In this document: one piece after another, positions 40,046 through 63,745 of the stretch | How positions within the stretch are numbered: the stretch's first letter is position 1 | Layout: every line of letters begins with the position of its first letter | Virus record (IMG/VR): IMGVR_UViG_3300042691_044868 | Coordinates: 6,965-70,964 of that record | DNA from: a virus | Strand: one strand, 5' to 3' | Length of the DNA: 64,000 nt | Made by a program: the position numbers and the translations under genes | The notes under the pieces: model-generated | What the model was told of the DNA's origin: nothing | Databases searched by the model: none | Seen by the model: the letters and a program-made list of their open reading frames with translations, nothing else

Positions 40046-40901
40046 CTTAAAGGAAATCAAACTTGAAGTCTTCGATCAATGGGGGTTTGTCGACCGCTTG
40101 CTCATTCGCGGAAACAAAGCCCACCTCATCGATTACAAATTTGGATTCAATCCTGTCGATGACGCAGAGCACAACGCTCAAATGTGGGCTTATACGATCG
40201 GAGTTTTTGACAAGTACGATTACGTCACAGACGTCACCGTTCATGTTTTGCAACCCCGGCTCGACCTTATCTTCACTCACTCATTTAATCGGGCATCCGA
40301 TTATGGGCGAATGGAAAAACGAATCAAAGGAATCATAGAAAAATGCAAAAATCATACCGAATCCGATTACACACCAGGGGATCAATGCGTATTCTGCGCG
40401 AAGCTGGCCGACTGCCCCGCGGTTCACGGAGCCACCATGCAGATCGTTAAAGCATATGACCTGGCACACGACGCGCAGTTGCCGGAACTATTTCATCCAG
40501 GCCAGTTGGCTACACCGGAACGCCGTGCCCAGGCCCAACGTATCGCTATGGTCATGGAAGCCTGGTGCTCCAGCGTCCGTAAACACAATTTGGAGTTTGC
40601 CAAAGAAGGCGGCGAAATTCCTGGTTACGGCCTTAAGGAAATTCAGGGCCGAAGGGAAATTAAAGATTCGCAAAAAGCTTGGGAACTTGTAAAAGACAAA
40701 CTCACCCCGGAGGAATTCAGTTCCGCTTGTGAGGTGAAGTTCACAGATTTGGCTGATCTAGTTGCGGCCAAAGCGCCTCGCGGTCAAAAGACCGTGGCGA
40801 AAGAACAACTGGAAGACACGCTCATCGAGGCGGAAGCAATGACGCGCGGTGAGCCGTCTTATCAACTAAGAAAAACAAAAGAGATAAAACAAATAAAATG
40901 A
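40038..40901 (+). CDS. C-terminal/catalytic part of the Cas4/RecB-like nuclease
   Basis: WGFVD, IDYKFG, QM..Y, PG.QC.FC.....CPA. Confidence 0.85.
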   Translation: MLDLKEIKLEVFDQWGFVDRLLIRGNKAHLIDYKFGFNPVDDAEHNAQMWAYTIGVFDKYDYVTDVTVHVLQPRLDLIFTHSFNRASDYGRMEKRIKGIIEKCKNHTESDYTPGDQCVFCAKLADCPAVHGATMQIVKAYDLAHDAQLPELFHPGQLATPERRAQAQRIAMVMEAWCSSVRKHNLEFAKEGGEIPGYGLKEIQGRREIKDSQKAWELVKDKLTPEEFSSACEVKFTDLADLVAAKAPRGQKTVAKEQLEDTLIEAEAMTRGEPSYQLRKTKEIKQIK

Positions 40902-41618: not shown

Positions 41619-41789
41619 ATGAGGAAGGGGAGACGTTCCGGCATGGTGCGGCGCGAGATGCGTCGACAGGTCAAGTGTTCCTTGCCGCGTGAAACACCGG
41701 ACGTCCTCCGCCAATTTATCTCACTTTTGCAACATCTTAATTTTAACGTGAAAACAGAAGTAAAGGGTATATGGATCAAAACGAAATAA
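41619..41789 (+). CDS. small basic hypothetical protein (56 aa)
   Basis: Hand-translated MRKGRRSG...IKTK; fills the gap. Confidence 0.45.
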   Translation: MRKGRRSGMVRREMRRQVKCSLPRETPDVLRQFISLLQHLNFNVKTEVKGIWIKTK

Positions 41790-42082
41790 ACACGGACTTG
41801 GCCCCTGCCATCAGCGAAGTGGTGGCAGAAGCCGGAGAAGTCATAACCAAAATCATGTCCCGGGGATCGGACAAGAGTTTATTTGGACAATGGTTTCACA
41901 CCGATAGCCGGCGTTACAATGCGGATCGTCTGATTTCGCATGTAACCCAGGCCATGATGCAGATTGATGGAAACAGGCCCGATCCCGATCCGGCAGGAGA
42001 GAGTTCACTGGATCACCTGGAACGGGCGATGGTCAGGGCAGCGTTTCTACTCTACAAGACGCGCAGGGGAAAAACTTTGTGA
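41771..42082 (+). CDS. hypothetical protein, weakly like dATP/dGTP diphosphohydrolase (DUF5664-type)
   Basis: M..G..K....W ... H ... D..GE...DHL..A..R..FL pattern. Confidence 0.45.
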   Translation: MDQNEINTDLAPAISEVVAEAGEVITKIMSRGSDKSLFGQWFHTDSRRYNADRLISHVTQAMMQIDGNRPDPDPAGESSLDHLERAMVRAAFLLYKTRRGKTL

Positions 42083-49825: not shown

Positions 49826-49908
49826 TGGGAAGGGCTGGACTCGAACCAGCGAAGGCGTAAGCCAAGAGATTTACAGTCTCCCCCGTTTGACCGCTTCGGT
49901 ACCTTCCC
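49826..49908 (-). tRNA. tRNA-Tyr(GUA), CCA not encoded
   Basis: GGGAAGG/CCTTCCC acceptor stem, anticodon loop CTGTAAA, long variable arm, GGTTCGAGTCC T-arm. Confidence 0.93.
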
Positions 49909-49917
49909 GAGCCGGTA

Positions 49918-50607
49918 TTAGTAGACTAAGAAAAACGACGGAGCCGACGTCGCGGTAATCGCGGACACGGTGCTGGCAGACAGGCTGCTGGGTAGAGAAG
50001 TGACGCTAGTAATCCCCAAAGAAGAGGTTATGGCATAAGTACCAGCGGGCGCCCCCGAGCTAAGGCTACCTAGTACTCCTTGATTATATACTGCAAAAGA
50101 ACCAGAGTTCGACACCGTTCCCGCTGTATTGACCGCACAAACCAAATACCATCCCCTTTGAATCTCACCGCTGGTGAGCGTTAGAGTCACTGTTTTGGAC
50201 CCCGGGGTGGTTGTAGTGGTATAGCTACTTTCAGCGACAAGGGTTCCGGAAGAGACGCCTTCGCTAACCGAGTACAGTCCGACTAATCCCGCCCCGCCCG
50301 AGCCACTCAAAGCGTTCGAGATGGCGCTAATTGACGAAGCCGAAATGTTCGAAGCAATGAAGTACGGAATCAGGCTCATGTTTCCGTTGGTGAAATTATT
50401 GCTGGCGGGTGCAGAGGTGGGCTGAACCAGAGCCGGATATCGAATACGAGTGGTCCCGCTGGATTCCCGAGGGAACGCGTAGGAGTTGGAGGGATCGATG
50501 TCCTCGATGTTGAGGTCGTTAATAATGCTGTTATTAAAAACCTGTTTGATTTGTGCCGCCAAAACCCGGTCGGGGGTTGCTACTGAAATTGCAAAATCGT
50601 CAGCCAT
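49918..50607 (-). CDS. Ser/Thr-rich virion accessory protein sharing its N-terminal motif with 30573..30887
   Basis: VATPDRVLAAQI versus VATQDKVLAAQI; beta-rich body with VGLY and GWY motifs. Confidence 0.7.
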   Translation of the reverse strand: MADDFAISVATPDRVLAAQIKQVFNNSIINDLNIEDIDPSNSYAFPRESSGTTRIRYPALVQPTSAPASNNFTNGNMSLIPYFIASNISASSISAISNALSGSGGAGLVGLYSVSEGVSSGTLVAESSYTTTTTPGSKTVTLTLTSGEIQRGWYLVCAVNTAGTVSNSGSFAVYNQGVLGSLSSGAPAGTYAITSSLGITSVTSLPSSLSASTVSAITATSAPSFFLVY

Positions 50608-50613
50608 GGACCT

Positions 50614-50641
50614 ATGCTATTTTGTTTACGGGGAATGTCAA
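50614..50641 (-). promoter_or_regulatory. promoter TTGACA-N16-TAGCAT, 6 nt from ATG 50607 (leaderless geometry)
   Basis: Read directly on the reverse complement. Confidence 0.7.
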
Positions 50642-51357
50642 CTATTTCCAGGGTCTTTTCTTTTTAAGAATTCGCCCATTACATACGCTTTTCCCGCCAT
50701 GGTGTTTGGCGGTCCGGTAAAGTGATACAGATACTTGGCTGGGTCGTAAGGCATGATCGCCGCCTGTAGCTGGGTGACCGGTGTGATGTCATGACATTTG
50801 GAAAAATCAAAGTCCACCCGTCGGCTGACGGCATAGTTAAACGAGGACTGTTCCAGCCGAGCGTCCACCCCCATGCTCGACCCCCATTGGACCCATCGAT
50901 GCCATAGCCCTCGAATCTCTTCCAGAAAGCCAATGTCCTTAAAACAAAAAGTCCCGGCATTCATGCCAAAGACCTTTTCCATTTTCAGCTTGTCCTCCCG
51001 CGGGGCCTTGTCGTAGGCGTACCAGCGGTCGATCATTTCCCGGCCCTCGAATACCACCGAGAATTCCTTGTCCGGATGAATCAATGATTTTGGATTGCCA
51101 AAGCAGAACACGTCGGAGTCCAGGTAAACATACTGGTCATAGCCCTTTGGGACCATCTCCGAGGATTTGAGGAAGCCAGGGTAACCTTTGGGCAACGGGG
51201 CCACGACGATGTTGTGTTTGAACTTGCCAGTGATTGTCTTGGTCGCCACTACACAAAAGTCGGTATCCGAGTCCAGGGTCATGCTGTCGTAAAGCATGTT
51301 GATGCAACTGTCCGCCCCGGGCGAGAAGTCCGATACCGTGTAAACCAGAGTCTTCAA
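50638..51357 (-). CDS. GT-A fold glycosyltransferase (GT8-like)
   Basis: YVYLDSD (DxD), NAGTF, EQSSFN, HFTG. Confidence 0.8.
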   Translation of the reverse strand: MKTLVYTVSDFSPGADSCINMLYDSMTLDSDTDFCVVATKTITGKFKHNIVVAPLPKGYPGFLKSSEMVPKGYDQYVYLDSDVFCFGNPKSLIHPDKEFSVVFEGREMIDRWYAYDKAPREDKLKMEKVFGMNAGTFCFKDIGFLEEIRGLWHRWVQWGSSMGVDARLEQSSFNYAVSRRVDFDFSKCHDITPVTQLQAAIMPYDPAKYLYHFTGPPNTMAGKAYVMGEFLKRKDPGNS

Positions 51358-51364
51358 GCCGCCG

Positions 51365-51407
51365 ACTATAAATTTTCCTTGCCAGGGGTCAATTGAATTG
51401 AGACACT
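51365..51407. promoter_or_regulatory. interlocked divergent promoters
   Basis: Minus strand TTGACC-N16-TATAGT-N7-TTG(51357); plus strand TTGCCA-N17-GACACT-N10-ATG(51418). Confidence 0.7.
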
Positions 51408-51417
51408 GACCCTACGC

Positions 51418-52011
51418 ATGACTTACGCAGCAAACCTTCCCCAGCATCAATACTGCTGGGTCGACAAATCAATCATGAGTAACGGCGAGGTGAAAGGCTG
51501 GGAGGAGGGTGTTTGGTTCGGCCTGCTCTCCACTCCGCACCGCGCATGGGGTTGCTCGGTGATGCTCAAGTGCGGGGCCCTGTACCGCGGGCTCCCACTC
51601 CATGCCCTTTGCCACGACCGTGTGGGTTTTGACGTCAAATGGGAAATCGGTGACGCACAGCGGTGGGACTGTTTCGGCTACAACTTCTCGCCGATCCGTT
51701 ACGACTACCTCCGGGAACTCGATGTCGATGTATGGATCGCCAAGCGGCAGAACTGGGTTTCGGGTCATTATGTTTTTACGGCGGAGCCTTATGAAGACTC
51801 CTACTCTTTGGAGCCTAGTCAAACGAAGTCCCACAACTTTATTGCCCTGGAGAACGGGCGATACACCTGCGTTCCGAACAACAACATCCTTTGGAAAGAA
51901 TCAAGCTTCGTCAAATCGCAAGGCAAACCAAGCTGGCTGCGGGTGCAGTCGGAAAGCTGGCACGCCGAGGAACCCGGGTTTGACAAGGTGGTGACGGAGG
52001 AATCAGCATGA
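51418..52011 (+). CDS. conserved-looking phage hypothetical protein
   Basis: Trp/Cys/His-rich; GA.Y..LP.HAL, WDCF, K..NFI.L.NG....PNN patterns. Confidence 0.8.
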   Translation: MTYAANLPQHQYCWVDKSIMSNGEVKGWEEGVWFGLLSTPHRAWGCSVMLKCGALYRGLPLHALCHDRVGFDVKWEIGDAQRWDCFGYNFSPIRYDYLRELDVDVWIAKRQNWVSGHYVFTAEPYEDSYSLEPSQTKSHNFIALENGRYTCVPNNNILWKESSFVKSQGKPSWLRVQSESWHAEEPGFDKVVTEESA

Positions 52012-53900: not shown

Positions 53901-53907
53901 CCTACTG

Positions 53908-53946
53908 GAGGGGGCGGGGGTTCACACCCCCCGCCCCTTCTTTTTT
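53908..53946 (+). terminator. intrinsic terminator between convergent genes
   Basis: gagggggcggggg / cccccgccccttc stem followed by TTTTTT. Confidence 0.8.
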
Positions 53947-53966
53947 AACCCATAGAATCCATGAAT

Positions 53967-54461
53967 CTAAGAATCCTTGGCTATCTCGATCACGCGCGCG
54001 TTTTCACTATCATCCCGCGCTTGGCTCATCGGGGAATCAGTGCGAAGGACGGCAAGGTTAACGACTGTCTTGCCATTGCTTCCTTGATTCTGCGAAGCCA
54101 GTCCCAATGCGGGTCGAGCCACGCGGTCAAGCTTCTCGAGAACCTCGACATGTTCACGCACTTCTTTGCGGCTTCCAGGCATCTCGGCTTCGAGGACATC
54201 CAAGCTATGATCGACTTGATTGGCGATCCTGTTCAGATATCGGGCCTGTCGATCGACCTGATCCTGTACCACGGCTTGAGTGTTCGCACGTACAATCTTG
54301 TCAGTAACTTCGTCCCTTTTCTTTACCCAACCGTGCCTTTTGATTCGAGCGTCCAAAGTGTTCTTACTCAGGCAATACGTCGATGCAATGAAGCTACGAC
54401 TCTTCCCTGCAATGAAGTCCTTCTCAATCGCTTTCCAGTCCAACATCAAAGACTTACCCAT
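53967..54461 (-). CDS. putative terminase small subunit (N-terminal HTH)
   Basis: DW.AIE.DF.AG.S...IA..Y.LS..TL..RIKR.GW HTH, helical middle, V.NL C-terminal strand. Confidence 0.65.
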   Translation of the reverse strand: MGKSLMLDWKAIEKDFIAGKSRSFIASTYCLSKNTLDARIKRHGWVKKRDEVTDKIVRANTQAVVQDQVDRQARYLNRIANQVDHSLDVLEAEMPGSRKEVREHVEVLEKLDRVARPALGLASQNQGSNGKTVVNLAVLRTDSPMSQARDDSENARVIEIAKDS

Positions 54462-54467
54462 AGCCGT

Positions 54468-54497
54468 AGCTTATATGCACCATCGTGCAAGAGTCAA
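54468..54497 (-). promoter_or_regulatory. promoter TTGACT-N18-TAAGCT, 6 nt from ATG 54461
   Basis: Read directly on the reverse complement. Confidence 0.55.
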
Positions 54498-54551
54498 GGC
54501 ATCCCTGATTCGAGGATTCATCGAATCGCAACCACAAGGAGTTAGAACCAA

Positions 54552-55436
54552 ATGAGCAAGCCACTATATCAGCAGCTGCACGACGAGGCTGTCGAGCACG
54601 AACTGGGTGTCGTGTTTGAGGAGCCCAGTGTACAGCCCGAGCAGGTGCACGTCCCCGAGCCCGAGGAACCTGTGACCGAGGAGGTCGGCAGTTTCCTTCA
54701 GGACTTCGGCCACCTCCGTGCCATGGTCAAGGCGCGCGAGGTCAACGACCCGATGAGCAGTTCGGGTCGCTGGGATGACCTTCAGCTCGACCTGCGTCAG
54801 CCCCATATCCCAGCGGTTCGGCGAGACCCGGTGCGCCGTCACCTCAAGCTGACCCTGCCCGAAGGCGTGACCGTTCCGTTGATCAGGCTGGGGCCCGCGC
54901 TGGGTGAGACCCTCGGGCTCAAGGCTGCTGGCGGTGCCAACAAGTATGCCCTGACCAGCATCAAGACCGACAAGTGGGAGCACAACACCCACGAGCGTGC
55001 GGTGGCCAGCGGTGAGCGCAAGTTCGAGGCTGACGAGCGTCGCACCTTTGCCAACTTCGATGCCCCGGCCAAGACCGCCACCCAGATGCTGGGTCGTCTT
55101 GTCCGTGCCATGCGGTTCGGTCACCCGTCCCGCAAGGCACACTTCGAACAGCAGTTCCGCCTGTTGTGGTCGGTGCGTGGCCAGCTCCGTGCCACCCTTG
55201 GCGTCAGCCCCCGCAAGCCCGTGGTCAAGCCCAAGGTGGTCGTGACCGTGGCGCCCAAGCCCCTTCCGCCCAAGCCCGAGTACTTCGACAGGCTCTTGGC
55301 CGAGCTGGGGGAGAACGCCGCCAAGCTGGGCACGCTTCCCCGCCACGACCTGATCGACGATGACCAGAAGGCCATGCGGACCAAGCTCATGGCCCGCCAG
55401 CGGTTCATCCAGTCGACCATCGGGAGGTGGATGTGA
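54552..55436 (+). CDS. hypothetical early protein
   Basis: SD aaggag; strong C/G third-position bias. Confidence 0.75.
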   Translation: MSKPLYQQLHDEAVEHELGVVFEEPSVQPEQVHVPEPEEPVTEEVGSFLQDFGHLRAMVKAREVNDPMSSSGRWDDLQLDLRQPHIPAVRRDPVRRHLKLTLPEGVTVPLIRLGPALGETLGLKAAGGANKYALTSIKTDKWEHNTHERAVASGERKFEADERRTFANFDAPAKTATQMLGRLVRAMRFGHPSRKAHFEQQFRLLWSVRGQLRATLGVSPRKPVVKPKVVVTVAPKPLPPKPEYFDRLLAELGENAAKLGTLPRHDLIDDDQKAMRTKLMARQRFIQSTIGRWM

Positions 55437-55684
55437 ACTGTATTGTCTGCAACCAACCCGTCGAGGCGGAGCGTCTTGACCTTGGCTTCTCCAAGTGCAA
55501 GGGCTGTGCCTTTGACTGGCCGGAACCCAGGCTCAAGGGGGCGATGGTCTACGGTGACAAGACAGCGGGAGCCATCAACGTGATGACCCCCGAAAGCTTT
55601 GGAAACTACAAACGAATTTCGCGCAGGGTCGGTCAGCGTTCGGCACTGAGAAATGTGCTGGACTCTGGCGGTCGCTCGCAATAA
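55433..55684 (+). CDS. C4 zinc-finger protein (DksA/TraR-finger-like)
   Basis: C..C...V...RL......C..C. Confidence 0.65.
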   Translation: MNCIVCNQPVEAERLDLGFSKCKGCAFDWPEPRLKGAMVYGDKTAGAINVMTPESFGNYKRISRRVGQRSALRNVLDSGGRSQ

Positions 55685-55703
55685 CCAAAAGGAGATACAC
55701 AAA

Positions 55704-55889
55704 GTGAAAAACAAACCCATCCTCTACACCCTGACGGTGTGGAGGCACGACAGAACCTGTGGCCACGACTACCACTGGCTGACGCTCAAACAGGCGCTCA
55801 ACATGATCGAGGACCTGACCACGGGAAACACCTGCATCAGCAACCCCGACAACCGGTTCGAGTTGTACCCGAACGAGGCGGTCGTATGA
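55704..55889 (+). CDS. hypothetical protein
   Basis: SD aaaggag before GTG 55704. Confidence 0.6.
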   Translation: MKNKPILYTLTVWRHDRTCGHDYHWLTLKQALNMIEDLTTGNTCISNPDNRFELYPNEAVV

Positions 55890-56182
55890 AATTCCGAGAC
55901 GAAGACGCACCCTTGTTTGATGTCCGACAAGACCAGCTGGGCAGGATGCAGGACAAAGGCTTCTTCATCCGTTTCAATAACGGATACGAGGTCAGTGTCC
56001 AGTTCGGAACCTACAACTACAGCGACAACGGGCAGACCACGGCGGAGGTTGCCGTGTTTGACCCCAAAGGTGGCTTGGTCAAGTTGGGGGAACACGACGA
56101 TGTTCTCGGGCGTGTCACCCCTGAGCGGGTGGCCGAGCTGATCTACGAATACTCGCTGATCAAAAAGGAGGAAACCGTATGA
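55886..56182 (+). CDS. hypothetical protein
   Basis: F.NGY.VSV...Y......AEVAV...DDV.G pattern common in phages; ATGA overlap. Confidence 0.7.
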   Translation: MKFRDEDAPLFDVRQDQLGRMQDKGFFIRFNNGYEVSVQFGTYNYSDNGQTTAEVAVFDPKGGLVKLGEHDDVLGRVTPERVAELIYEYSLIKKEETV

Positions 56183-56313
56183 ACCAAGAGACACCAACCA
56201 CAACGTTCTGCCCTGTCTGCAAAGGCACGGGCTTGGACTTCAGAAACGTGTACCCGGACGGCTCGCCTTCCTACTGCGAGGAGTGCGACGGCTACGGGGA
56301 GGTAAACAAATGA
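56179..56313 (+). CDS. tiny DnaJ-type zinc-finger protein (44 aa)
   Basis: CPVCKGTG and CEECDGYG; SD aggagg; hand-translated. Confidence 0.7.
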   Translation: MNQETPTTTFCPVCKGTGLDFRNVYPDGSPSYCEECDGYGEVNK

Positions 56314-56654
56314 GCGACTACATCCAGCTTGGAGAGGTTCCCTATGACGTGAAGATCGTCAAATCGGGAACCCGCTTCTACCACAACAGCGAGGCTTACA
56401 AGGGTAAGCGGACGATCGACGTGTCCAAGGTCCCGTCGGACGGGTGGACGGACTGGTGGCTCCTCGAATCCTCGAAGCCGTTGCCAGTGACCGATGACCC
56501 TTGCCACCCATACCCCAAGGTACGGTCGGCAAGCTTCACCGACGTGAGCTACGACTACGGCGGTCCGGGCCAAAGGTTCACCAAGAGGGCCAGCGCCCGC
56601 AGGATGGGACGCTGGAAGGTTCTGGTCACCCAAAGCGGAGGGCTCGACATATGA
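56310..56654 (+). CDS. hypothetical protein
   Basis: SD ggagg; ATGA overlaps. Confidence 0.7.
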   Translation: MSDYIQLGEVPYDVKIVKSGTRFYHNSEAYKGKRTIDVSKVPSDGWTDWWLLESSKPLPVTDDPCHPYPKVRSASFTDVSYDYGGPGQRFTKRASARRMGRWKVLVTQSGGLDI

Positions 56655-56941
56655 ACGGGAAGTCTGGACAAAACCTGTCGAGGTTCGCCCTTCGTGACGG
56701 TTTGACGGCTTACCATAACCGGAAGCTGACCATGCACGACTGGCGAAAGAACATCCTAATGGCAAAGCAAAACGCCAAGCTTCGTGTGGCACGGGAGAAT
56801 GATAGTGGTCTTGAGCGTTCCCACGCTCTGACTGATATCAACCGAAAGGTGATCAAGAAAAAGATGATGACCATCAATGAAGCTTACGAAAGGAACAGGA
56901 CAACCAAGCCGTTTGGAATGTTCTGGGTTCTATGCGGGTAG
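56651..56941 (+). CDS. basic hypothetical protein
   Basis: ATGA overlap. Confidence 0.6.
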   Translation: MNGKSGQNLSRFALRDGLTAYHNRKLTMHDWRKNILMAKQNAKLRVARENDSGLERSHALTDINRKVIKKKMMTINEAYERNRTTKPFGMFWVLCG

Positions 56942-57022
56942 ACCAAGTGCCCCCCTTACACGGGGGCACAAGTCTGGCCGATAGGCTGGAAACAACAGAT
57001 AACCCTAACCAAAGGAATACAA

Positions 57023-57250
57023 ATGAAAGTCAATAACAAAATCGTAATCTCGGTCTGCCACGGGACTTCCCCCAGCGGGAATCTCACTGGACGCTACTAC
57101 ACCGCCTCAGTCGAGGGGTGGGAGGGCGAGGGCTTGACGGAGAACGAGGCGGTCATCGACGCCACGCACGCGCGTGCCGAGGCGATGATCAAGATCAACC
57201 ACAACAACCGGGGCTTCGGAACCCGTCTTAACTTCGCGGAGGTCGCATGA
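57023..57250 (+). CDS. hypothetical protein
   Basis: SD aaagga. Confidence 0.7.
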   Translation: MKVNNKIVISVCHGTSPSGNLTGRYYTASVEGWEGEGLTENEAVIDATHARAEAMIKINHNNRGFGTRLNFAEVA

Positions 57251-57387
57251 CCGCTCGCGAGTGTCTAGACGTTCTGACGATCCTATTGCAGCTCGGCTTG
57301 GCGTTTATCGCCATACCGACCTGTTTGGTGGCATCCGCGATGCTTCTGATCAAGCTTTGCAAAATGCTTGCGGAGGATGCTCGATGA
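57247..57387 (+). CDS. small membrane protein (46 aa)
   Basis: Hand-translated; ATGA overlaps at both ends; hydrophobic. Confidence 0.6.
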   Translation: MTARECLDVLTILLQLGLAFIAIPTCLVASAMLLIKLCKMLAEDAR

Positions 57388-57737
57388 ACCCCAACAGCAA
57401 AATCTGGAGGGCTGGACAGGAAATCCAGCTACGGGGAAAGCAAGGCCAAGGCCTTGAATTCACCATCAACACGGGAGCGGTCATTGTCAACGGAGTTGTC
57501 CACCCAGACGGGTGGGTGTTGCCCGAGACGATGATCAACGTCAGAACTCAGGACAACACCTGGGGATTCTACGTGGCATCCGAGCTTGAGCGTCCCTACA
57601 GGATTCCAAGCTTTGAACAGCTGGTCGCCATCATCCGTTCTTGGACGGGTGACTGGGCGTTCCGCTTCCGCAAACAGAAACAAGCCGTGCTCAATGGCGC
57701 GGTCAACGAGGAGGAAAATGACAATGAGGTTGACTAA
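57384..57737 (+). CDS. hypothetical protein
   Basis: SD ggagg before ATG 57384. Confidence 0.65.
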   Translation: MNPNSKIWRAGQEIQLRGKQGQGLEFTINTGAVIVNGVVHPDGWVLPETMINVRTQDNTWGFYVASELERPYRIPSFEQLVAIIRSWTGDWAFRFRKQKQAVLNGAVNEEENDNEVD

Positions 57738-57909
57738 CACAAGTTGGGAGTGGGCTAGGTTCCATGCCTATCGCAGCAAGGCGAGCAACACGTTCGTCTT
57801 TAACTTTGCTCCGACAGCTCTCGGATTCGAGATCTACTGGAGCACATCGTCCACCATCGTTTATCTGGAGCTTGGCATCGGGACACTGATGCTTCGATTC
57901 AGCAAATGA
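57724..57909 (+). CDS. hypothetical protein
   Basis: SD gagga; aromatic beta pattern. Confidence 0.55.
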   Translation: MRLTNTSWEWARFHAYRSKASNTFVFNFAPTALGFEIYWSTSSTIVYLELGIGTLMLRFSK

Positions 57910-58280
57910 ACTACCCATTACCCGTCGTAGCCGAAAAGGGCAAGCTCCAGCATTTGCTGGGGCTTGACCCGATTCCTCGGACGTCCACTTACAGCTTTCC
58001 CCGCGGGAAGGTTGTGCTTCGGACACAACGTCTGCCAACCAAAACAGAGATTGGTAGCGTGGGCCTCTATTACACCGACCTTGATGGATACAGGGCGATG
58101 TTTGAGGTTCGTGCCACCTACGAGTGGACAAATGCAGGAAGGGTCGCCTCGTCGGAACCATACTACATCTTCAAGACTGGATGCGTAAGCCAATCCAGCT
58201 TTGATGCCTTGATTCAGACAATCAAGATGATCCACGAGAAGATCCAAACCACGTTCAGAAAGCCGAGGCTCGATGAATAA
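57906..58280 (+). CDS. hypothetical protein
   Basis: ATGA overlap. Confidence 0.65.
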   Translation: MNYPLPVVAEKGKLQHLLGLDPIPRTSTYSFPRGKVVLRTQRLPTKTEIGSVGLYYTDLDGYRAMFEVRATYEWTNAGRVASSEPYYIFKTGCVSQSSFDALIQTIKMIHEKIQTTFRKPRLDE

Positions 58281-58572
58281 GCGTAAACAAAAACTTATCC
58301 TTACTCCTCGGGACAGGATTAGGTGCTTCCTCGAAGCCTATTATCCAGACGAAGTTGACAAGATTCTTCTTGCTGACGGATTGGATAATGCTTTCAAGGG
58401 TGTAATAAACCGTGACGGAAAACCTGTGGCGGTTTATGGCAAAAGAACCTGTCTCTTTGAGCTGGCTAAAACAAACAACTGGTCAATCGACGATGCTGAG
58501 GAGTATTTCTCCTTCAACGTTGAGGGAGCTTACGTCGGCGATCGGACACCACTCTTTATGGAGGAACTATGA
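58273..58572 (+). CDS. conserved-looking phage hypothetical protein
   Basis: LLADG.D.A..G.......AVY...C......DA.EYF.FNV.GAYVG..TP.F motif. Confidence 0.8.
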   Translation: MNKRKQKLILTPRDRIRCFLEAYYPDEVDKILLADGLDNAFKGVINRDGKPVAVYGKRTCLFELAKTNNWSIDDAEEYFSFNVEGAYVGDRTPLFMEEL

Positions 58573-58796
58573 AGCTATTTAGCAAAGGCGATCAAGTCTG
58601 GTGGCGTGGCTCGTGGGGCAACGAATCTTGGGAGAAAGCCAAGATCGTTGGCATCGAGCTTGTCAACGATGGACAGAAACAAGGTGGAATCGTCGTGGAG
58701 CAGATTCCCGTTGAGGTCAAAGACCATTGCGTGTTTGACCTAGCCAACGGGCATTGGGCTTACGGCTACCAAATCAAGGAGGTGACAAATGAGTAA
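58569..58796 (+). CDS. small SH3-like hypothetical protein
   Basis: KGD.V.WRG.WG and L.NGHWAYG.QI. Confidence 0.75.
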   Translation: MKLFSKGDQVWWRGSWGNESWEKAKIVGIELVNDGQKQGGIVVEQIPVEVKDHCVFDLANGHWAYGYQIKEVTNE

Positions 58797-59079
58797 TACT
58801 AAAGAGCGTATCATCACAATCGACACGACTGGCGGGGCTCTCAACGGAATCCCGGTAATCCAGTTCCTTGTCGCGAAGCAGGGTCTGCAAGCCCTGAATC
58901 GCGGCATGAGGTTAACCCGGTTCGCCACACCCCAACGTTGCATGGAGATCATCTCCTCAATCACGGGCTACAAGTACAAGCGAACCGACAGGAACGTGGC
59001 TTTGCGAGATGCGGAAGTTGTCCAGCATCTTTTGCAGGAAGCTCGTAAGCAAATCCTCGCAGACAAGGCGCTTGTATGA
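58789..59079 (+). CDS. hypothetical protein
   Basis: SD ggagg; G.RLTR...ITG..YKR pattern. Confidence 0.7.
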   Translation: MSNTKERIITIDTTGGALNGIPVIQFLVAKQGLQALNRGMRLTRFATPQRCMEIISSITGYKYKRTDRNVALRDAEVVQHLLQEARKQILADKALV

Positions 59080-59366
59080 CATACACAAACGACATCGAGG
59101 TGGAGTTCGACTATGACGGGAAACGTTATAGTGCGATGGCCGATGTCACCGTTGAGTTGTCCAGACAGGATGTCGGTCCGATAGGATACCGAGATCATGT
59201 CGAGCGGTTTGCCACCGATTCGGTGACTATTGAGAATCTTTCCATTGGGGGGCTTCCCGATGGTGAAGACTTTGCCGTCATCCCGGACGACATCAAAAAC
59301 CTGGCTGAATCCAGGCTTTCGGAGATTGCGTCCGAACGTGCGGAAGAGTTTCTGGCGGACGAGTGA
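59076..59366 (+). CDS. acidic hypothetical protein
   Basis: ATGA overlap. Confidence 0.7.
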   Translation: MTYTNDIEVEFDYDGKRYSAMADVTVELSRQDVGPIGYRDHVERFATDSVTIENLSIGGLPDGEDFAVIPDDIKNLAESRLSEIASERAEEFLADE

Positions 59367-59629
59367 TGAATCTTAAAGTATTCATTCACTCCGATTCGCG
59401 TGGAAACCGAAACGGAGTCTACGAGTTCCCGAACCGAGAGAAATGCTACAAGTGGTTGAACACCAATCTCTTTGGCAACAAAGTTTCTGCTCGACTTCGG
59501 CTCCAGTTAGTCAAGGATGGTTGCGTTGAAGACGCAAACAAAACCATCGTTGGTTACTGGTATGAACTCAAACACGACAAGCCGACATCGAAAGATGGAA
59601 AGCTTGTCTTTCCAATGACAACAAAATAA
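59363..59629 (+). CDS. hypothetical protein
   Basis: Overlap packing. Confidence 0.6.
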   Translation: MMNLKVFIHSDSRGNRNGVYEFPNREKCYKWLNTNLFGNKVSARLRLQLVKDGCVEDANKTIVGYWYELKHDKPTSKDGKLVFPMTTK

Positions 59630-59640
59630 GGAGGTATCAA

Positions 59641-59817
59641 ATGGCAAAATTCAAATTAGAAATTGATACGGACAATGCGGCTTTCGGGGATGCCCCGGAG
59701 TTTGAATTGTCCCGAATCTTGAGCGAACTCTCCGACGATGTGGCCGATGACCAGCGCGAAACCTACACCATTCGCGATGAGAACGGCAACACCGTAGGCA
59801 AAGCTACTTGGTCTTGA
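59641..59817 (+). CDS. small acidic protein (58 aa, MAKFKLEIDTDNAAF...IRDENGNTVG)
   Basis: SD taaggagg; DNAAF..E..RIL...IRD.NGN.VG motif common in early phage genes; hand-translated. Confidence 0.8.
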   Translation: MAKFKLEIDTDNAAFGDAPEFELSRILSELSDDVADDQRETYTIRDENGNTVGKATWS

Positions 59818-59905
59818 CGGTCAGACCCCGCGCGCCCGATGAGGGCGTGTCGGTCTGCCCGTGTGGGCGGAACAAAACGAAACCAAAACCGAAAGGAACA
59901 CTACA

Positions 59906-60223
59906 ATGGAACTAACAATACCAACTCAGGTTGTCGACGACTTCGGTCGCGCAACCGAAAACCTCAAGCTCTCCAACGAGCGACGGAAAGAGTATCGCAC
60001 TCTCTTCCTCGAATCCGCGAAGCTTGGAAACAAGGAATGGTCGGGTCAGCTGTTCGAGGTTCGCATGGACGAACACGACAAGCAAAGGCTCGTCAAACCG
60101 TTGCTCCGGCAACACCTCCTCAAAAGGCTCACACCCGAGGAAGTCGACCATATCTTCCAGGCGTCAACCGTGACGTCGGAGGAATGGCACTTCACGGCTC
60201 ACAGGATTCCAACAGGTGAGTGA
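59906..60223 (+). CDS. hypothetical protein
   Basis: SD aaagga before ATG 59906. Confidence 0.7.
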   Translation: MELTIPTQVVDDFGRATENLKLSNERRKEYRTLFLESAKLGNKEWSGQLFEVRMDEHDKQRLVKPLLRQHLLKRLTPEEVDHIFQASTVTSEEWHFTAHRIPTGE

Positions 60224-60479
60224 GGCAGTCAAGATTCACCCTGCGATCACCAAGTCCGATGGGCTTGTGATCTATGACCGGGACAATGTGATGGTCGACC
60301 CGACCCTCTACATTTCCATGAAGGAAGCGGAGACCGCGCTTGCCAACTACACGGACGCCGACATCTGGTCGGTGGTCGTGGAGCGCAAGCACAAGGTCAA
60401 CGACGCCCCCAGGGTCAAACGGGGAAAGAAGCTACGCCCACTCATCATTGAATACGTGAAAGGAGATTCACTCATATGA
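60216..60479 (+). CDS. hypothetical protein
   Basis: Overlap packing. Confidence 0.6.
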   Translation: MSEAVKIHPAITKSDGLVIYDRDNVMVDPTLYISMKEAETALANYTDADIWSVVVERKHKVNDAPRVKRGKKLRPLIIEYVKGDSLI

Positions 60480-62824
60480 TTATTACAGCTGCAAGAAACT
60501 CGGCGGTCATCGAGGGTGGCGGCGAGTCGGTCGACTACAAGATCGACACGGCCAACCTCGGTCACATCGCCAGCATCCTCCGCAAAGCCTACTCCGATCC
60601 CATCCGTGCGGTGGTTCGTGAGTACGGCACAAATGCGTGCGAGGCGCACATGCTCAACGGCAACGAGAAGAAGCCGTTCGAGGTGACGCTTCCCACGTCC
60701 TTGGCTCCTACCTTCAAGCTCCGTGACTTCGGTCCGGGTCTTGGCGTTGAGTCGTTCAAGGACTTGTTCTGCTCATACGGCGGATCAAGCAAGCGGACGA
60801 GCAATAAGTTCACAGGTTGCCTTGGCATCGGTTGCAAGTCCTATGGCTCGTACACCGACTCCTGCACCGTGACCGACATCCACGACGGAACCAAGCGCAT
60901 CTGGAACTGCTACATCGACGAGAGCGAAGTGGGCAGAGCCACGATGCTCAGCGAAACCAAGACCAACGAACCAAGCGGGGTTGAGATTGCCATCGCCGTC
61001 CGCCCGACTGACGTTGAGCGGTTCCGCTCGACGGCCATCCGTGTCTACAAGGTCTTTGACGTCCAGCCCAAGCTGGTCAGCGCGAAGGCTGAGGAGCACG
61101 AGATGCTTGCCAAGCGTGACTATAGCGAAGGCTCGGTCAAGGGAAGCAACTGGTCTTTCCGTGGCGATAACAATAGCTGGCTCCAGATGGGGCTGGTTTT
61201 GTATCCGTTGAAAGCCGACTTCGCCGGACCCAACTCGGTGAAGGAACTCATCAACGCCGGCGTCTATGTGCGGGTCGAGCTCGGGGATGTGCAGATCGCA
61301 CCTTCCCGTGAGGACCTGCAATACTCGCAGAAGACCATCCAGAGTCTGATCAAGCATCTGACCCCGATCGTCAACACGATTGGTGATGAGCTTATCAAGG
61401 CTGTGCAGGGTGCGCCCGACATCATCGCGGCGTACCAGGTTGTTCGCGAGTTCCGCCGTCACGGGGAGTATGGCTCAAGCAACTTCCGTGACGCCATCGT
61501 CAAGAAGATCAAGCCCAAGCTGACGTGGAAGGGTATTTCACTCAGCGGGGACTTTGAGCTTCCGCTTGCGGAGACTGAGAAAAACGCCAAGGGTGAGATC
61601 ACCAAGACACCCAAGACCATTCTTGAGGAGCACGGCATCACCCTGCTTCGGATGGGCAAGCGAAGCTGGGGTAAGTCAAAGGTGAGTGTCGACCGTGATG
61701 ACCACAGAATCCATATCCAAAAAGATATGGAAGTGTTCTTCAACGACACCAAGACCGGCTCAGGTGAGGCCCGAATTCGTCACTGGATGACGAATACCAC
61801 GGACTACAACAACAATGCAACCATCTTTGTTGTATCCTGCAAGAACGGTGGCAAAGCCTGGCTCGAGGCCAATGTGCCTTGGTTCAAGCATGTGCCGTTC
61901 CGCTCGATCGAGGCGTTACCCAAGCCGCCAGCGAAGACATTCGTTGATGAGAACGGTGATCCTGTGACCACCGTCAAGGACAAAAAGCATTCCCGCGGGA
62001 ATCTGTTTGTCCTTCGCTCGGACTATGCGGATCAAGACAAGCTCAGCGACCATTGGAATCTTGGACAGGCGCCGGATGGCGAGACTGTCTTTGTCCGACT
62101 CAACAAGTTTGAGTGGTCTGCGACCCTTGGAAGAGACGCGTTCTACAGCAACTACGAAACCTTGCACGATGCAGTGGGGTATCTGAAGGCTATCTCTCCG
62201 GTCAAAACGCTTTACGGCGTCAAGGTTGCCGACGAGAAAGCCAAGGCTAACTATAACCTCATCTGCCTCCACGAGGCTCTCGACAAGTATGTCAAAGAGT
62301 TTCTCGTTGCCAACCCGGACAAGGCACAACTGATTGCCGACCGCAAGGCGGCTCGGGTGTTCTTCTCCAACAACCGTTGGAGTAGTAATGGTTGGAAGGA
62401 CTTCGGCAACTTCTTTGAGACGGAGGACTTGTTCAGGTGGTTTGAGAGTTCAAAGAACAAGCCAAGCCTCATCAGCAAGCTTGATTCGAAAAGTCCGTTC
62501 CGTGTCTACATGGAACACATTTATCGGATGCTTGGTGGAAACGAGCAAGAGCAACGGAAACTTCCCGTGTGGCTTAGGCGCCCCACAGGAGTCTGGCAGA
62601 TTGGCCGTGGAGAAGACAGCAAGGAGTACAAAGCACTCTTTGATCTTCTTCCCGAGCCATCGTTTGATTTGAAGAAAGCATCCAAGGGTTTGGTCGATCG
62701 CTATCCGCTCTTCGTGAGAAACTCAGAGTCTCCCGATATGATGCGGAGCCATGCGTTCTCCATCCCAACACAAGCTTCGGTCGAATATGTGCGGCTCGTT
62801 GATGCCGCACGCGACGGCCGATAA
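60476..62824 (+). CDS. rIIA: rIIA-like protein with N-terminal GHKL/HSP90-type ATPase
   Basis: YSDPIRAVVRE..TNA.EAH, RDFGPGL, YG.SSK, G.LGIG.KS, PSRE.L.Y; paired with an rIIB-like gene. Confidence 0.85.
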   Translation: MIITAARNSAVIEGGGESVDYKIDTANLGHIASILRKAYSDPIRAVVREYGTNACEAHMLNGNEKKPFEVTLPTSLAPTFKLRDFGPGLGVESFKDLFCSYGGSSKRTSNKFTGCLGIGCKSYGSYTDSCTVTDIHDGTKRIWNCYIDESEVGRATMLSETKTNEPSGVEIAIAVRPTDVERFRSTAIRVYKVFDVQPKLVSAKAEEHEMLAKRDYSEGSVKGSNWSFRGDNNSWLQMGLVLYPLKADFAGPNSVKELINAGVYVRVELGDVQIAPSREDLQYSQKTIQSLIKHLTPIVNTIGDELIKAVQGAPDIIAAYQVVREFRRHGEYGSSNFRDAIVKKIKPKLTWKGISLSGDFELPLAETEKNAKGEITKTPKTILEEHGITLLRMGKRSWGKSKVSVDRDDHRIHIQKDMEVFFNDTKTGSGEARIRHWMTNTTDYNNNATIFVVSCKNGGKAWLEANVPWFKHVPFRSIEALPKPPAKTFVDENGDPVTTVKDKKHSRGNLFVLRSDYADQDKLSDHWNLGQAPDGETVFVRLNKFEWSATLGRDAFYSNYETLHDAVGYLKAISPVKTLYGVKVADEKAKANYNLICLHEALDKYVKEFLVANPDKAQLIADRKAARVFFSNNRWSSNGWKDFGNFFETEDLFRWFESSKNKPSLISKLDSKSPFRVYMEHIYRMLGGNEQEQRKLPVWLRRPTGVWQIGRGEDSKEYKALFDLLPEPSFDLKKASKGLVDRYPLFVRNSESPDMMRSHAFSIPTQASVEYVRLVDAARDGR

Positions 62825-62848
62825 ACCAAAAACGAAAGGAACAATAGT

Positions 62849-63703
62849 ATGAAATACATAGTAACTGACGAGAGTATCACGGCAGTCATCGGCGGCAAGG
62901 CTCACACCCTGCGCCGTGACCATGCCAACGCGAGACTGGTGATCGAAGCGATCGCCCGCGGGGACAACGAAGCTGACATCGAGAAGCTGATGGATGTCCA
63001 ACAGGCCATGTCCGCTTACCTTGGCGATAACGTCGAGGTGCGGGACGGCGCTGTCCACCATCGTGGCGAGCAGGTTGACGAGGTCATCTCCAAGAGGATT
63101 CTGGACTTCATGTCCAACAATCTTCCGGTGGCTCCGCTGACCAGGTTCCTCGAGAATCTGTACAACAATCCGAGCCGTAACAGCCGGACGCAGTTGTACA
63201 AGTTCCTCGAGCACGAGCATCTGCCCATCACCGAGGACGGTCACTTCCTTGCCTACAAGTCGGTTCAACCCGACTACACCGACCACCACACCGGCAAGTT
63301 CAGCAACACGGTCGGCTCGGTGCTGAGCATCCAACGGCGCGACGTGGACGACAATCCCGACAACGGTTGTTCGTATGGTTTCCACGCCGGCTCGCTGGAA
63401 TACGCAACCACGTTCGGAGGAAGCGACCGCAAGGTAATGATCGTCAAGATCAACCCTGCTGATGTCGTCTCGGTTCCCAACGACTGCGAATGCCAGAAGC
63501 TTCGCACTGCCCGCTATGAGGTCGTGGCCCACTACACTGGCCCGCTGCCCAAAGCGTACGCAGAAGCGTACGACTCGGTCGAAGACGACATCTATGAAGA
63601 GGATGACGTCGAGGCGAGCGAATCAACGGGTGACAACAGCTTGGTGACCGCCATTCGTGAGGCGGCTAACCGGCTCTTGAACGCCCTGCCCGGAAACAAC
63701 TAA
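62849..63703 (+). CDS. rIIB: rIIB-like protein
   Basis: FLENL..NPS, LY.FL, PITEDG.FLAYK, CS.G.H, VKINPADVVSVP.D, KLR..RYEV. Confidence 0.88.
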   Translation: MKYIVTDESITAVIGGKAHTLRRDHANARLVIEAIARGDNEADIEKLMDVQQAMSAYLGDNVEVRDGAVHHRGEQVDEVISKRILDFMSNNLPVAPLTRFLENLYNNPSRNSRTQLYKFLEHEHLPITEDGHFLAYKSVQPDYTDHHTGKFSNTVGSVLSIQRRDVDDNPDNGCSYGFHAGSLEYATTFGGSDRKVMIVKINPADVVSVPNDCECQKLRTARYEVVAHYTGPLPKAYAEAYDSVEDDIYEEDDVEASESTGDNSLVTAIREAANRLLNALPGNN

Positions 63704-63709
63704 TTGGAG

Positions 63710-63745
63710 GCGGGGGCGTGGGCAACTCCCACGCCCCCGTATTTT
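63710..63745 (+). terminator. terminator-like hairpin after rIIB
   Basis: cgggggcgtggg / cccacgcccccg stem, then TATTTT. Confidence 0.65.

Follow-up and report, generated by a model that had tools for sequence, protein, structure and literature searches.

A conserved intercistronic RNA hairpin cassette, apparently undescribed, in presumed-early messages of two uncultured phage groups

Early phage operons are long strings of small unknown genes, and the segmentation and stabilisation of their messages is known for few models (T7, lambda, T4). The question arises again in a 64,000-nt stretch of viral DNA (hereafter the window; positions 6,965 to 70,964 of the 70,964-bp IMG/VR record IMGVR_UViG_3300042691_044868), in which a 9.7-kb run of genes has just two gaps of more than 25 nt, at 56942-57022 and 59818-59905. 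An earlier note, made from the letters of the window, had pointed out that both gaps hold the same two-state RNA hairpin architecture in different sequence, and had suggested an undescribed cis-RNA element. What is this element, is its fold under selection, and what might it do in the message?

Architecture, distribution and covariation of the element

Both sites (56939-57022 and 59815-59905, + strand; elements 1 and 2) follow one plan, with a stop codon, AGAC, a GC hairpin (hp1), GUCU overlapping a second hairpin (hp2), an A/C-rich leader, a Shine-Dalgarno (SD) sequence and an ATG, and the stop, stems, hairpins and SD described in the earlier note were all found at the sequence it had quoted. 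The hp1 sequences of the two elements are unrelated to each other, and their hp2 sequences differ by compensated changes. In both elements the 5' arm of hp2 reuses the TCT of the outer-stem GTCT, and in element 1 forming hp2 therefore excludes the AGAC/GTCT pairing. The bases directly 3' of hp1 read AAGUCUGG or CGGUCUGC, with no U-tract, and in element 2 the stretch from hp2 to the SD contains no T.

This arrangement exceeds what chance would give in this genome. A pattern of the shared architecture matched twice in the window and never in 100 shuffles, and across the whole 70,964-bp genome it matched the same two sites only. Both folds are also more stable than those of shuffled sequence, with z-scores of -4.15 for element 1 (0/200 shuffles as good) and -3.30 for element 2 (1/200). 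Likewise, a covariance model scored the elements at 89.3 and 84.8 bits in the window, where the next match reached 14.7 bits, and on the whole genome it returned these two sites only.

Relatives were collected by way of the rIIA homologue downstream of the elements, which has 88 homologues in a large protein set, 45 of them at least 50% identical. Using an alignment of 29 rIIA homologues as query we retrieved 8 loci in viral contigs and 22 in metagenome contigs, while a single-protein scan of the viral contigs had found no loci. Most of the retrieved loci have the architecture, as located by a regular expression, at both syntenic positions 5' of rIIA. Scanning the viral contigs with the exact 20-mer of hp2 gave 45 stretches in 44 distinct contexts, of which 42 carry the full architecture, one is cut by the end of its locus and one (L065 and L069) is unrelated sequence. 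The covariance model, which the earlier note had proposed building and searching against this genome and viromes, was made from 65 distinct aligned copies and applied at E <=0.01; the outcome was positive, with 70 matches in 61 loci, all on the gene-sense strand. At the place of element 2 (site 2), 23 of the 26 rIIA loci that reach it carry the element, and 15 have a second copy 2.4-4.5 kb upstream. The three below threshold are L029 and L030, which have a divergent form, and L032, which has neither element nor gap.

The carriers fall into two otherwise unrelated phage groups, with genomes of ~70 kb and ~37 kb. Complete genomes of the second type are 37-38 kb long, with the small and large terminase, primase and methylase genes on the strand opposite to the element; the element itself comes after one or two small genes that open a short operon on the sense strand, next to a divergent region. 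The complete 70,964-bp genome contains two copies, and each of four complete 37-kb genomes a single strong one. The proteins common to both groups are a few small ones, none of which adjoins the element.

RNAalifold predicted hp1 and hp2 from the first 35 copies, and in the 65 copies 99.9% of the 950 cells of this tandem structure pair, with double-sided changes in 8-9 of its 15 pairs. The covariation score was 0.517 against 0.151 in shuffles, 0.517 being reached by none of 500 of them, and slid controls paired at 31-50%. Covariation is strong in hp1, with some in hp2. At least seven sequence versions of hp1 occur, all of them pairing, including compensated sub-versions in the 37-kb group and a further version in L027, and its length (8-11 bp) and loops vary. 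In hp2 there are three main versions that differ by compensated changes, single changes convert G.U to G-C or A-U and U.G to U-A, and the loops seen are GATA, GATC, GTGT, GCTA and TTG; the lower stem and its flanks are conserved in sequence beyond what pairing needs. The selection on structure that the earlier note proposed is thus borne out, both by the compensated changes in hp1 and hp2 and by a covariation score above all 500 shuffles.

The fold is one of RNA, on the sense strand. A G.U pair occupies columns 53-66 in 65/65 copies and columns 54-65 in 51/65, which would be A.C mismatches on the other strand, and the antisense folds of elements 1 and 2 are weaker (-27.7 and -24.6 kcal/mol) than the sense folds (-29.3 and -32.0 kcal/mol), by 7.4 kcal/mol for element 2; the structure therefore lies on the sense strand, in the mRNA.

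The register with the neighbouring genes is likewise tight. Among the 64 copies with an upstream frame of at least 40 codons, the upstream stop ends -2 to +7 nt from AGAC in 62, and the end of hp2 lies 31-38 nt from the ATG in 65 of 67 copies. In these 67 copies the leader consists of 61% A, 18.5% C, 13% G and 7.5% T, in a window with ~25% of each.

We also examined mosaicism, by clustering 150 nt on each side of the 67 copies at 70% identity. This gave 17 upstream and 13 downstream flank types, with six four-gamete quartets, and two hp1 versions were found between identical flanks, for example in L004 and L018. The flank types and quartets make the conserved cassette, as a side effect, also a recombination junction between gene modules, as is the case for PeSLs (promoter-early stem-loop cassettes), and the element offers a marker for module exchange between phages. 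The many flank types, the few shared proteins and the lack of a conserved neighbouring protein point to use of a host factor, and a cassette common to two unrelated uncultured phage groups probably plugs into one.

This structured RNA is well supported and apparently undescribed, an intercistronic hairpin cassette of presumed-early phage mRNA. The earlier note's suggestion of an undescribed cis-RNA element has held up: beside the covariance support, no Rfam family, ribozyme or riboswitch matched so as to overlap the elements even at E up to 10, the sole gathering-level Rfam match in the window being a tRNA, and the 16-nt core string (as DNA, RNA or reverse complement) was not found in the searchable literature, which did not cover supplementary files. 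Keyword searches of the literature gave no description of the motif and returned only PeSLs and general RNase literature. Adding the element to RNA family libraries could improve the annotation of viral metagenomes.

A range of known identities was considered and rejected. The sites are not ordinary (Rho-independent) terminators, as the earlier note had it, since no U-tract follows hp1 and neither site appears in a terminator scan that finds two true terminators nearby (Table 1). A PeSL-like sigma-70 promoter inside the element was discounted because the promoter scan showed none there, and because of the missing T before the SD of element 2. An N4-type hairpin promoter or other phage RNA polymerase promoter would carry the G.U pairs as A.C mismatches on its template strand; furthermore, a giant open reading frame (ORF) of 4544 aa has only helicase-like domains, and no such polymerase was seen among the scanned ORFs. 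A lambda-type nut site is contradicted by the varying loops of hp1 and hp2, and no boxA-like string was seen in the elements. For a CRISPR-repeat mimic or a host origin, the exact 20-mer was scanned over one genome per bacterial species; it gave 29 single matches in GC-rich contexts, none in an array and none with the architecture, although an exact scan would miss diverged repeats. ARAGORN found no tRNA-like structure at the element sites, REP/RAYT-type repeats would be many and dispersed where here there are 1-2 copies per genome, and an RNase P minihelix with an NCC tail does not fit L027, L029 and L030, which have no CC tail. In relatives, a regular expression also matched an AGAC...GTCT ~8 kb beyond rIIA, but a reverse-strand gene starts there.

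Two mutually exclusive folds

We next compared the two alternative pairings over the 65 copies, forcing AGAC/GUCU for the long helix (state A) and UCU/GGA for hp1 plus hp2 (state B). The gap between them ranged from -2.7 to +1.2 kcal/mol with a mean of -0.2, and 93.7% of the cells of state A pair. AGAC/GUCU pairs in 65/65 copies, and state A further draws on a nearly invariant upstream CG, whose partner is the CG that tops hp2 (C8-G58 in 63 copies, G9-C57 in 64). A change of G54 to A occurs only together with U12 and U65, and is thereby compatible with both states. The invariance of AGAC, GUCU and GGA is what a doubly constrained strand would show.

The two helices are weighted differently in the divergent loci. 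L029 and L030 carry CAGGC/GCCUG and CAGAU/GUCUG, respectively, in the aligned columns of the syntenic site, and each folds into a hairpin of 10 bp, a 2x2 loop and 8 bp, ~7 kcal/mol more stable than the hp2 alternative. This long hairpin (L029:613-708, L030:879-974) replaces element 2 in loci whose rIIA is 79-80% identical over the part present, and the stop codon of the upstream ORF lies in its apical loop. In L027, by contrast, all 9 bp of hp2 pair perfectly, its 3' arm has AGAC at the end, and it outcompetes the outer stem.

A third AGAC/GUCU hairpin was found at 40805-40870 (+) of the window, inside the conserved C-terminal coding part of the exonuclease gene. It has an inner stem of 7-8 bp and a stability of -23.7 kcal/mol (z -3.9), and is followed by an A-rich stretch and the ATG of the next gene at 40898, with no hp2; the covariance model scores it at only 14.7 bits (E 0.17). 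Five relatives carry AGAU/AUCU there instead, by way of two synonymous compensating changes. Since L029, L030 and this hairpin support the outer stem, and L027 supports hp2, both helices appear to be selected, with a balance between the states that is not constant.

Toeprint and ribosome-helicase data indicate that a ribosome at termination covers the next 9-10 nt or so after the stop codon, and one that stands at the upstream stop should cover the lower extension and at least part of AGAC. The two-state fold of the earlier note thus stands as plausible, in that the modelled states are nearly isoenergetic in the 65 copies and the stop lies within ribosome reach, whereas in L029 and L030 the models favour the long stem by the ~7 kcal/mol given above.

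Possible roles in the message

Given the structure, conservation, covariation, strand and geometry set out above, we tentatively favour, at less than even confidence, a T7-like 'punctuation' site, for processing and stabilisation, as the role of this ~100-nt cis-acting RNA in a polycistronic, presumed-early mRNA. The cleavage, the enzyme and the effects on stability, as we infer them, would run as follows. A long irregular helix would form from a short lower extension, the AGAC/GUCU outer stem, an internal loop and the variable GC stem, and a host double-strand-specific endonuclease of the RNase III type would cut in or near the conserved outer stem. The upstream fragment would keep hp1 as a barrier against 3' exonucleases, and the released GUCU strand would refold with GGA into hp2, which would become the 5'-terminal hairpin of the downstream fragment, ahead of an unstructured A/C-rich leader and a strong SD. 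Since the stop lies no more than one ribosome footprint from the outer stem, ribosomes that translate the upstream gene would shift the RNA transiently towards the hp2 state. The element thus offers a compact candidate for a processing and stabiliser module.

The T7 early-region RNase III sites, whose names and cleavage positions were reportedly given by Dunn and Studier in 1983 and are not annotated in the T7 record, are the closest parallel to this reading. In both systems several copies punctuate one polycistronic early operon (co-transcription would have to hold here), and each fills an intercistronic gap of 60-90 nt. In their predicted folds the T7 early gaps also resemble state A, with a lower stem at or next to the upstream stop, an internal loop and an upper stem of 8-10 bp, followed by SD and AUG. 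When we folded three T7 early intercistronic gaps, two stood out from shuffles (z -3.8 and -3.6) and the third had a similar plan but a z of only -1.49, with 14/200 shuffles as good. However, there is no sequence similarity to the T7 sites, their upper stem is conserved among them and is freely replaced here, the 3' strand of the outer stem here has pairing in a second conserved hairpin as an alternative, the leader, at 31-38 nt, exceeds theirs in length and is A/C-rich, and cleavage here is a matter of prediction. RNase III sites of E. coli are enriched in intergenic regions within transcripts (PMC6212723).

For the proposed stabilising role of hp1 there are other parallels in hairpins that block exonucleases, REP elements among them. 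In the gal operon, an 8-bp hairpin that lacks a U-tract sets the stable internal 3' end of the galE mRNA (PMC11925234); it resembles hp1 in that a stable hairpin of this kind near a cistron junction can define such an end. Exonuclease-blocking hairpins of operons differ from the element in having no conserved flanks, second hairpin or conserved leader, and they are not known to form a cassette across genomes.

Several findings weigh against a processing site. AGAC, GUCU and GGA are invariant in the main family, so that the outer stem shows no covariation of its own there, and covariation in it comes from only two or three divergent sequences. A T7 early RNase III site is an irregular hairpin of about two helical turns with an internal loop, and the state A helix of the main family, with just 16-19 bp and interruptions, falls on the short side of classical RNase III substrates; an hp1 that varies in length would shift any ruler measured from the loop. 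A simple cleavage site needs no hp2, so the conservation of hp2 with compensated changes, and the 9-bp hp2 of L027 that outcompetes the outer stem, count on the same side. L032, whose rIIA is 84% identical over 85 residues, has no gap and no element at the site 2 junction, and the element is therefore dispensable.

Much of the mosaicism could be read without any cleavage, with hp1 as an exonuclease barrier or insulator, the A/C-rich leader as a translation-enhancing and nuclease-poor segment, and the whole as a PeSL-like linker without promoter or dedicated cleavage, whose flanks would be conserved through its spread by homologous recombination. The 17 upstream and 13 downstream flank types with their six four-gamete quartets, the hp1 versions swapped between the identical flanks of L004 and L018, and a leader of 61% A and 7.5% T would all suit such a passive cassette, and PeSLs are comparable shuffling cassettes (PMC2839356; PMC4122927). 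We nevertheless regard it as unlikely, since recombination leaves unexplained why AGAC, GUCU and GGA stay invariant while rIIA diverges to ~50% identity, why the changes in hp2 are compensated and why the distance to the stop codon is fixed. The PeSLs of T4-type phages are ~100-bp stop-to-ATG cassettes with G/C-tract stem-loops and an SD that mediate module shuffling (PMC2839356; PMC4122927). The likeness extends to a ~100-bp stop-to-ATG cassette with a G/C-tract stem-loop after the stop and an SD at its 3' end, set among small genes of unknown function and serving as a junction for module exchange. Unlike PeSLs the elements here have no promoter-like site, with no T at all between hp2 and the SD in element 2, and PeSLs occur in many copies per genome and the present element in 1-2.

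The same invariance and stop-codon register would be accounted for by a translation-sensing bistable switch, in which a ribosome at the upstream stop melts the outer stem and turns the long helix into hp1 plus hp2, a mechanism that we think rather less probable than a passive linker. Its state might, with equally little likelihood, gate Rho-dependent polarity, re-initiation or nuclease access for the downstream cistron. In its favour are the small energy differences between the states (-2.7 to +1.2 kcal/mol, mean -0.2, in 65 copies), the invariance of the mutually complementary AGAC, GUCU and GGA beside covarying singly paired positions, which fits a double constraint, the G54-to-A change that occurs only with U12 and U65 and so fits both states, a stop no more than 7 nt from AGAC in 62/64 copies, and L027, in which the 3' partner in hp2 is AGAC itself. 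On the other hand, the SD lies 20-27 nt beyond hp2, where neither state touches it, the balance is not conserved (the long stem wins by ~7 kcal/mol in L029 and L030 and hp2 wins in L027), and the copies are related, so that 65 similar energy differences amount to few independent observations. A ribosome-operated bistable RNA, in which AGAC, GUCU and GGA would make up a three-way complementarity one footprint from the upstream stop and each termination event would flip a nuclease-sensitive long helix into two protective hairpins, is a doubtful proposition; were it true, it would couple the fate of an mRNA segment or of the next cistron to translation of the preceding genes, and would be a mobile, host-factor-dependent device common to unrelated phages. 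In any case the element is a natural test case for a translation-coupled two-state RNA.

A signal at the level of transcription is improbable, be it a put- or nut-like RNA for processive antitermination or a hairpin-dependent pause of RNA polymerase on its way out of the first genes of an early operon. The put RNAs of HK022 and the nut sites of lambda are structured RNAs placed just after the first gene or genes of early operons, and put consists of two adjacent stem-loops, a layout that the element shares with it. The single copy of the 37-kb phages, after the first one or two small genes of its short operon near the divergent region, would suit this role, as would downstream terminators that are followed by more genes on the same strand (63710-63740 here, L042 ~5375-5425). 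Against it, hp1 has no fixed sequence, length or loop and hp2 no fixed loop, in contrast to RNAs that have to dock on a protein or on polymerase, no boxA-like string was seen on direct reading of either element, and a terminator at 53907 lies upstream of both elements, which leaves read-through there unexplained. The likeness to put is confined to the two-hairpin layout, and put and nut differ from the present case in that stem 1 and the loops are variable here and in that two copies stand in series per operon in the 70-kb phages. Least probable, to our mind, is that an RNA-binding protein encoded by phage or host uses the element as its operator, or that the element is a strand-specific signal for priming or recombination in single-stranded DNA. 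The conservation of the lower hp2 stem and its flanks beyond pairing need would fit a bound sequence; no protein gene is consistently adjacent, though, the tight register with stop, SD and ATG argues for a role at the mRNA level, and there are only 1-2 copies per genome.

Genome setting and minor features

The ends of the record share 69 bp, so the assembly is circular, and the genome encodes a large terminase, a DNA polymerase, a helicase, an exonuclease, and rIIA-like and rIIB-like proteins. No DNA match to the region or to the elements was found in the cultured-phage collection, in which rIIA homologues are at most 31% identical. The two elements split the gene run into segments of 3.0, 2.8 and 3.8 kb, and the remaining junctions of the run (53961-63703) either overlap or leave a gap of at most 24 nt. 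The earlier note had called the sites early-gene leaders: their intergenic placement is confirmed, and 'early' is presumed from the run of small ORFs and the rIIA and rIIB homologues downstream. The coordinates are collected in Table 1.

Table 1. Features of the gene run and of the two elements (positions in the window)
Feature	Position	Strand	Description
Terminator	53907-53941	+	Canonical, hairpin and T-tract; just 5' of the gene run (terminator scan)
Gene run	53961..63703	+	~22 tightly packed ORFs, the last being rIIA and rIIB homologues; 9.7 kb
Element 1, stop TAG	56939-56941	+	Ends upstream ORF 56501-56941; overlaps start of AGAC
Element 1, long-stem module	56940..56975	+	AGAC 56940-56943 pairs with GTCT 56972-56975 and encloses hp1
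Element 1, possible CGG/CCG extension	56935-56937 with 56978-56980	+	Seen in folds
Element 1, hp1	Arms 56947-56954 / 56962-56969	+	8 bp, 7-nt loop
Element 1, hp2	56973..56990; arms 56973-56979 / 56984-56990	+	7 bp, loop GATA
Element 1, leader	56991..57025	+	A/C-rich, unstructured; SD AAAGGA 57011-57016; ATG 57023 of ORF 57023-57250
Element 2, stop TGA	59815-59817	+	Ends upstream ORF 59641-59817; 5 nt before AGACC
Element 2, long-stem module	59823..59856	+	AGACC 59823-59827 pairs with GGTCT 59852-59856 and encloses hp1
Element 2, possible ACGG/CCGT extension	Extends the long-stem module	+	Seen in folds
Element 2, hp1	Arms 59830-59837 / 59843-59850	+	8 bp including two G.U, loop GATGA
Element 2, hp2	59854..59871; arms 59854-59860 / 59865-59871	+	7 bp, loop GTGT
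Element 2, leader	59872..59908	+	A/C-rich; SD AAAGGA 59892-59897; ATG 59906 of ORF 59906-60223
rIIA homologue	60476-62824	+	Within gene run
rIIB homologue	62849-63703	+	End of gene run
Terminator	63710-63740	+	Canonical, hairpin and T-tract; just 3' of rIIB (terminator scan)

Between the strong upstream terminator and the first ATG of the run there are only ~20 nt (53941-53961), in which no promoter-like site was detected. Within element 2, an ATG in the hp1 loop opens a 126-codon frame (59839-60219, +) that shares part of its length with the ORF starting at 59906; this frame probably reflects composition and no more, because the 59906 start has an SD and is conserved in relatives.

Elsewhere in the window, the 4544-aa ORF (1297-14931, -) matches no PHROG, and its family matches are confined to helicase-like P-loop domains at residues ~1420-1600. 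Embedded in the + strand arm are a tRNA-Tyr and two reverse-strand ORFs (49826-51392, -), and the good sigma-70-like promoters of these ORFs (TTGACC-16-TATAGT and TTGACA-16-TAGCAT) mean that the host probably uses standard promoters.

Among the proteins that the 70-kb and 37-kb groups have in common, the best match is a PHROG 3704 protein labelled 'ferredoxin' (51418-52011, +), which has no Pfam match and is 60% identical between the groups; as the best match it suggests a common host range or gene pool. A 103-aa protein (41771-42082, +) also occurs in the 37-kb phages at 42% identity, and it matches the N-terminal domain of dATP/dGTP diphosphohydrolase weakly, below the cutoff, which might be a hint of modified DNA bases. 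Finally, ~740 nt 3' of the main element the 37-kb phages have another intercistronic tandem hairpin of different sequence (L042:5022-5102, L051:7358-7424), with GAUA again as one of its loops and followed by a similar A/C-rich leader and SD, which suggests a broader class of such hairpin junctions.

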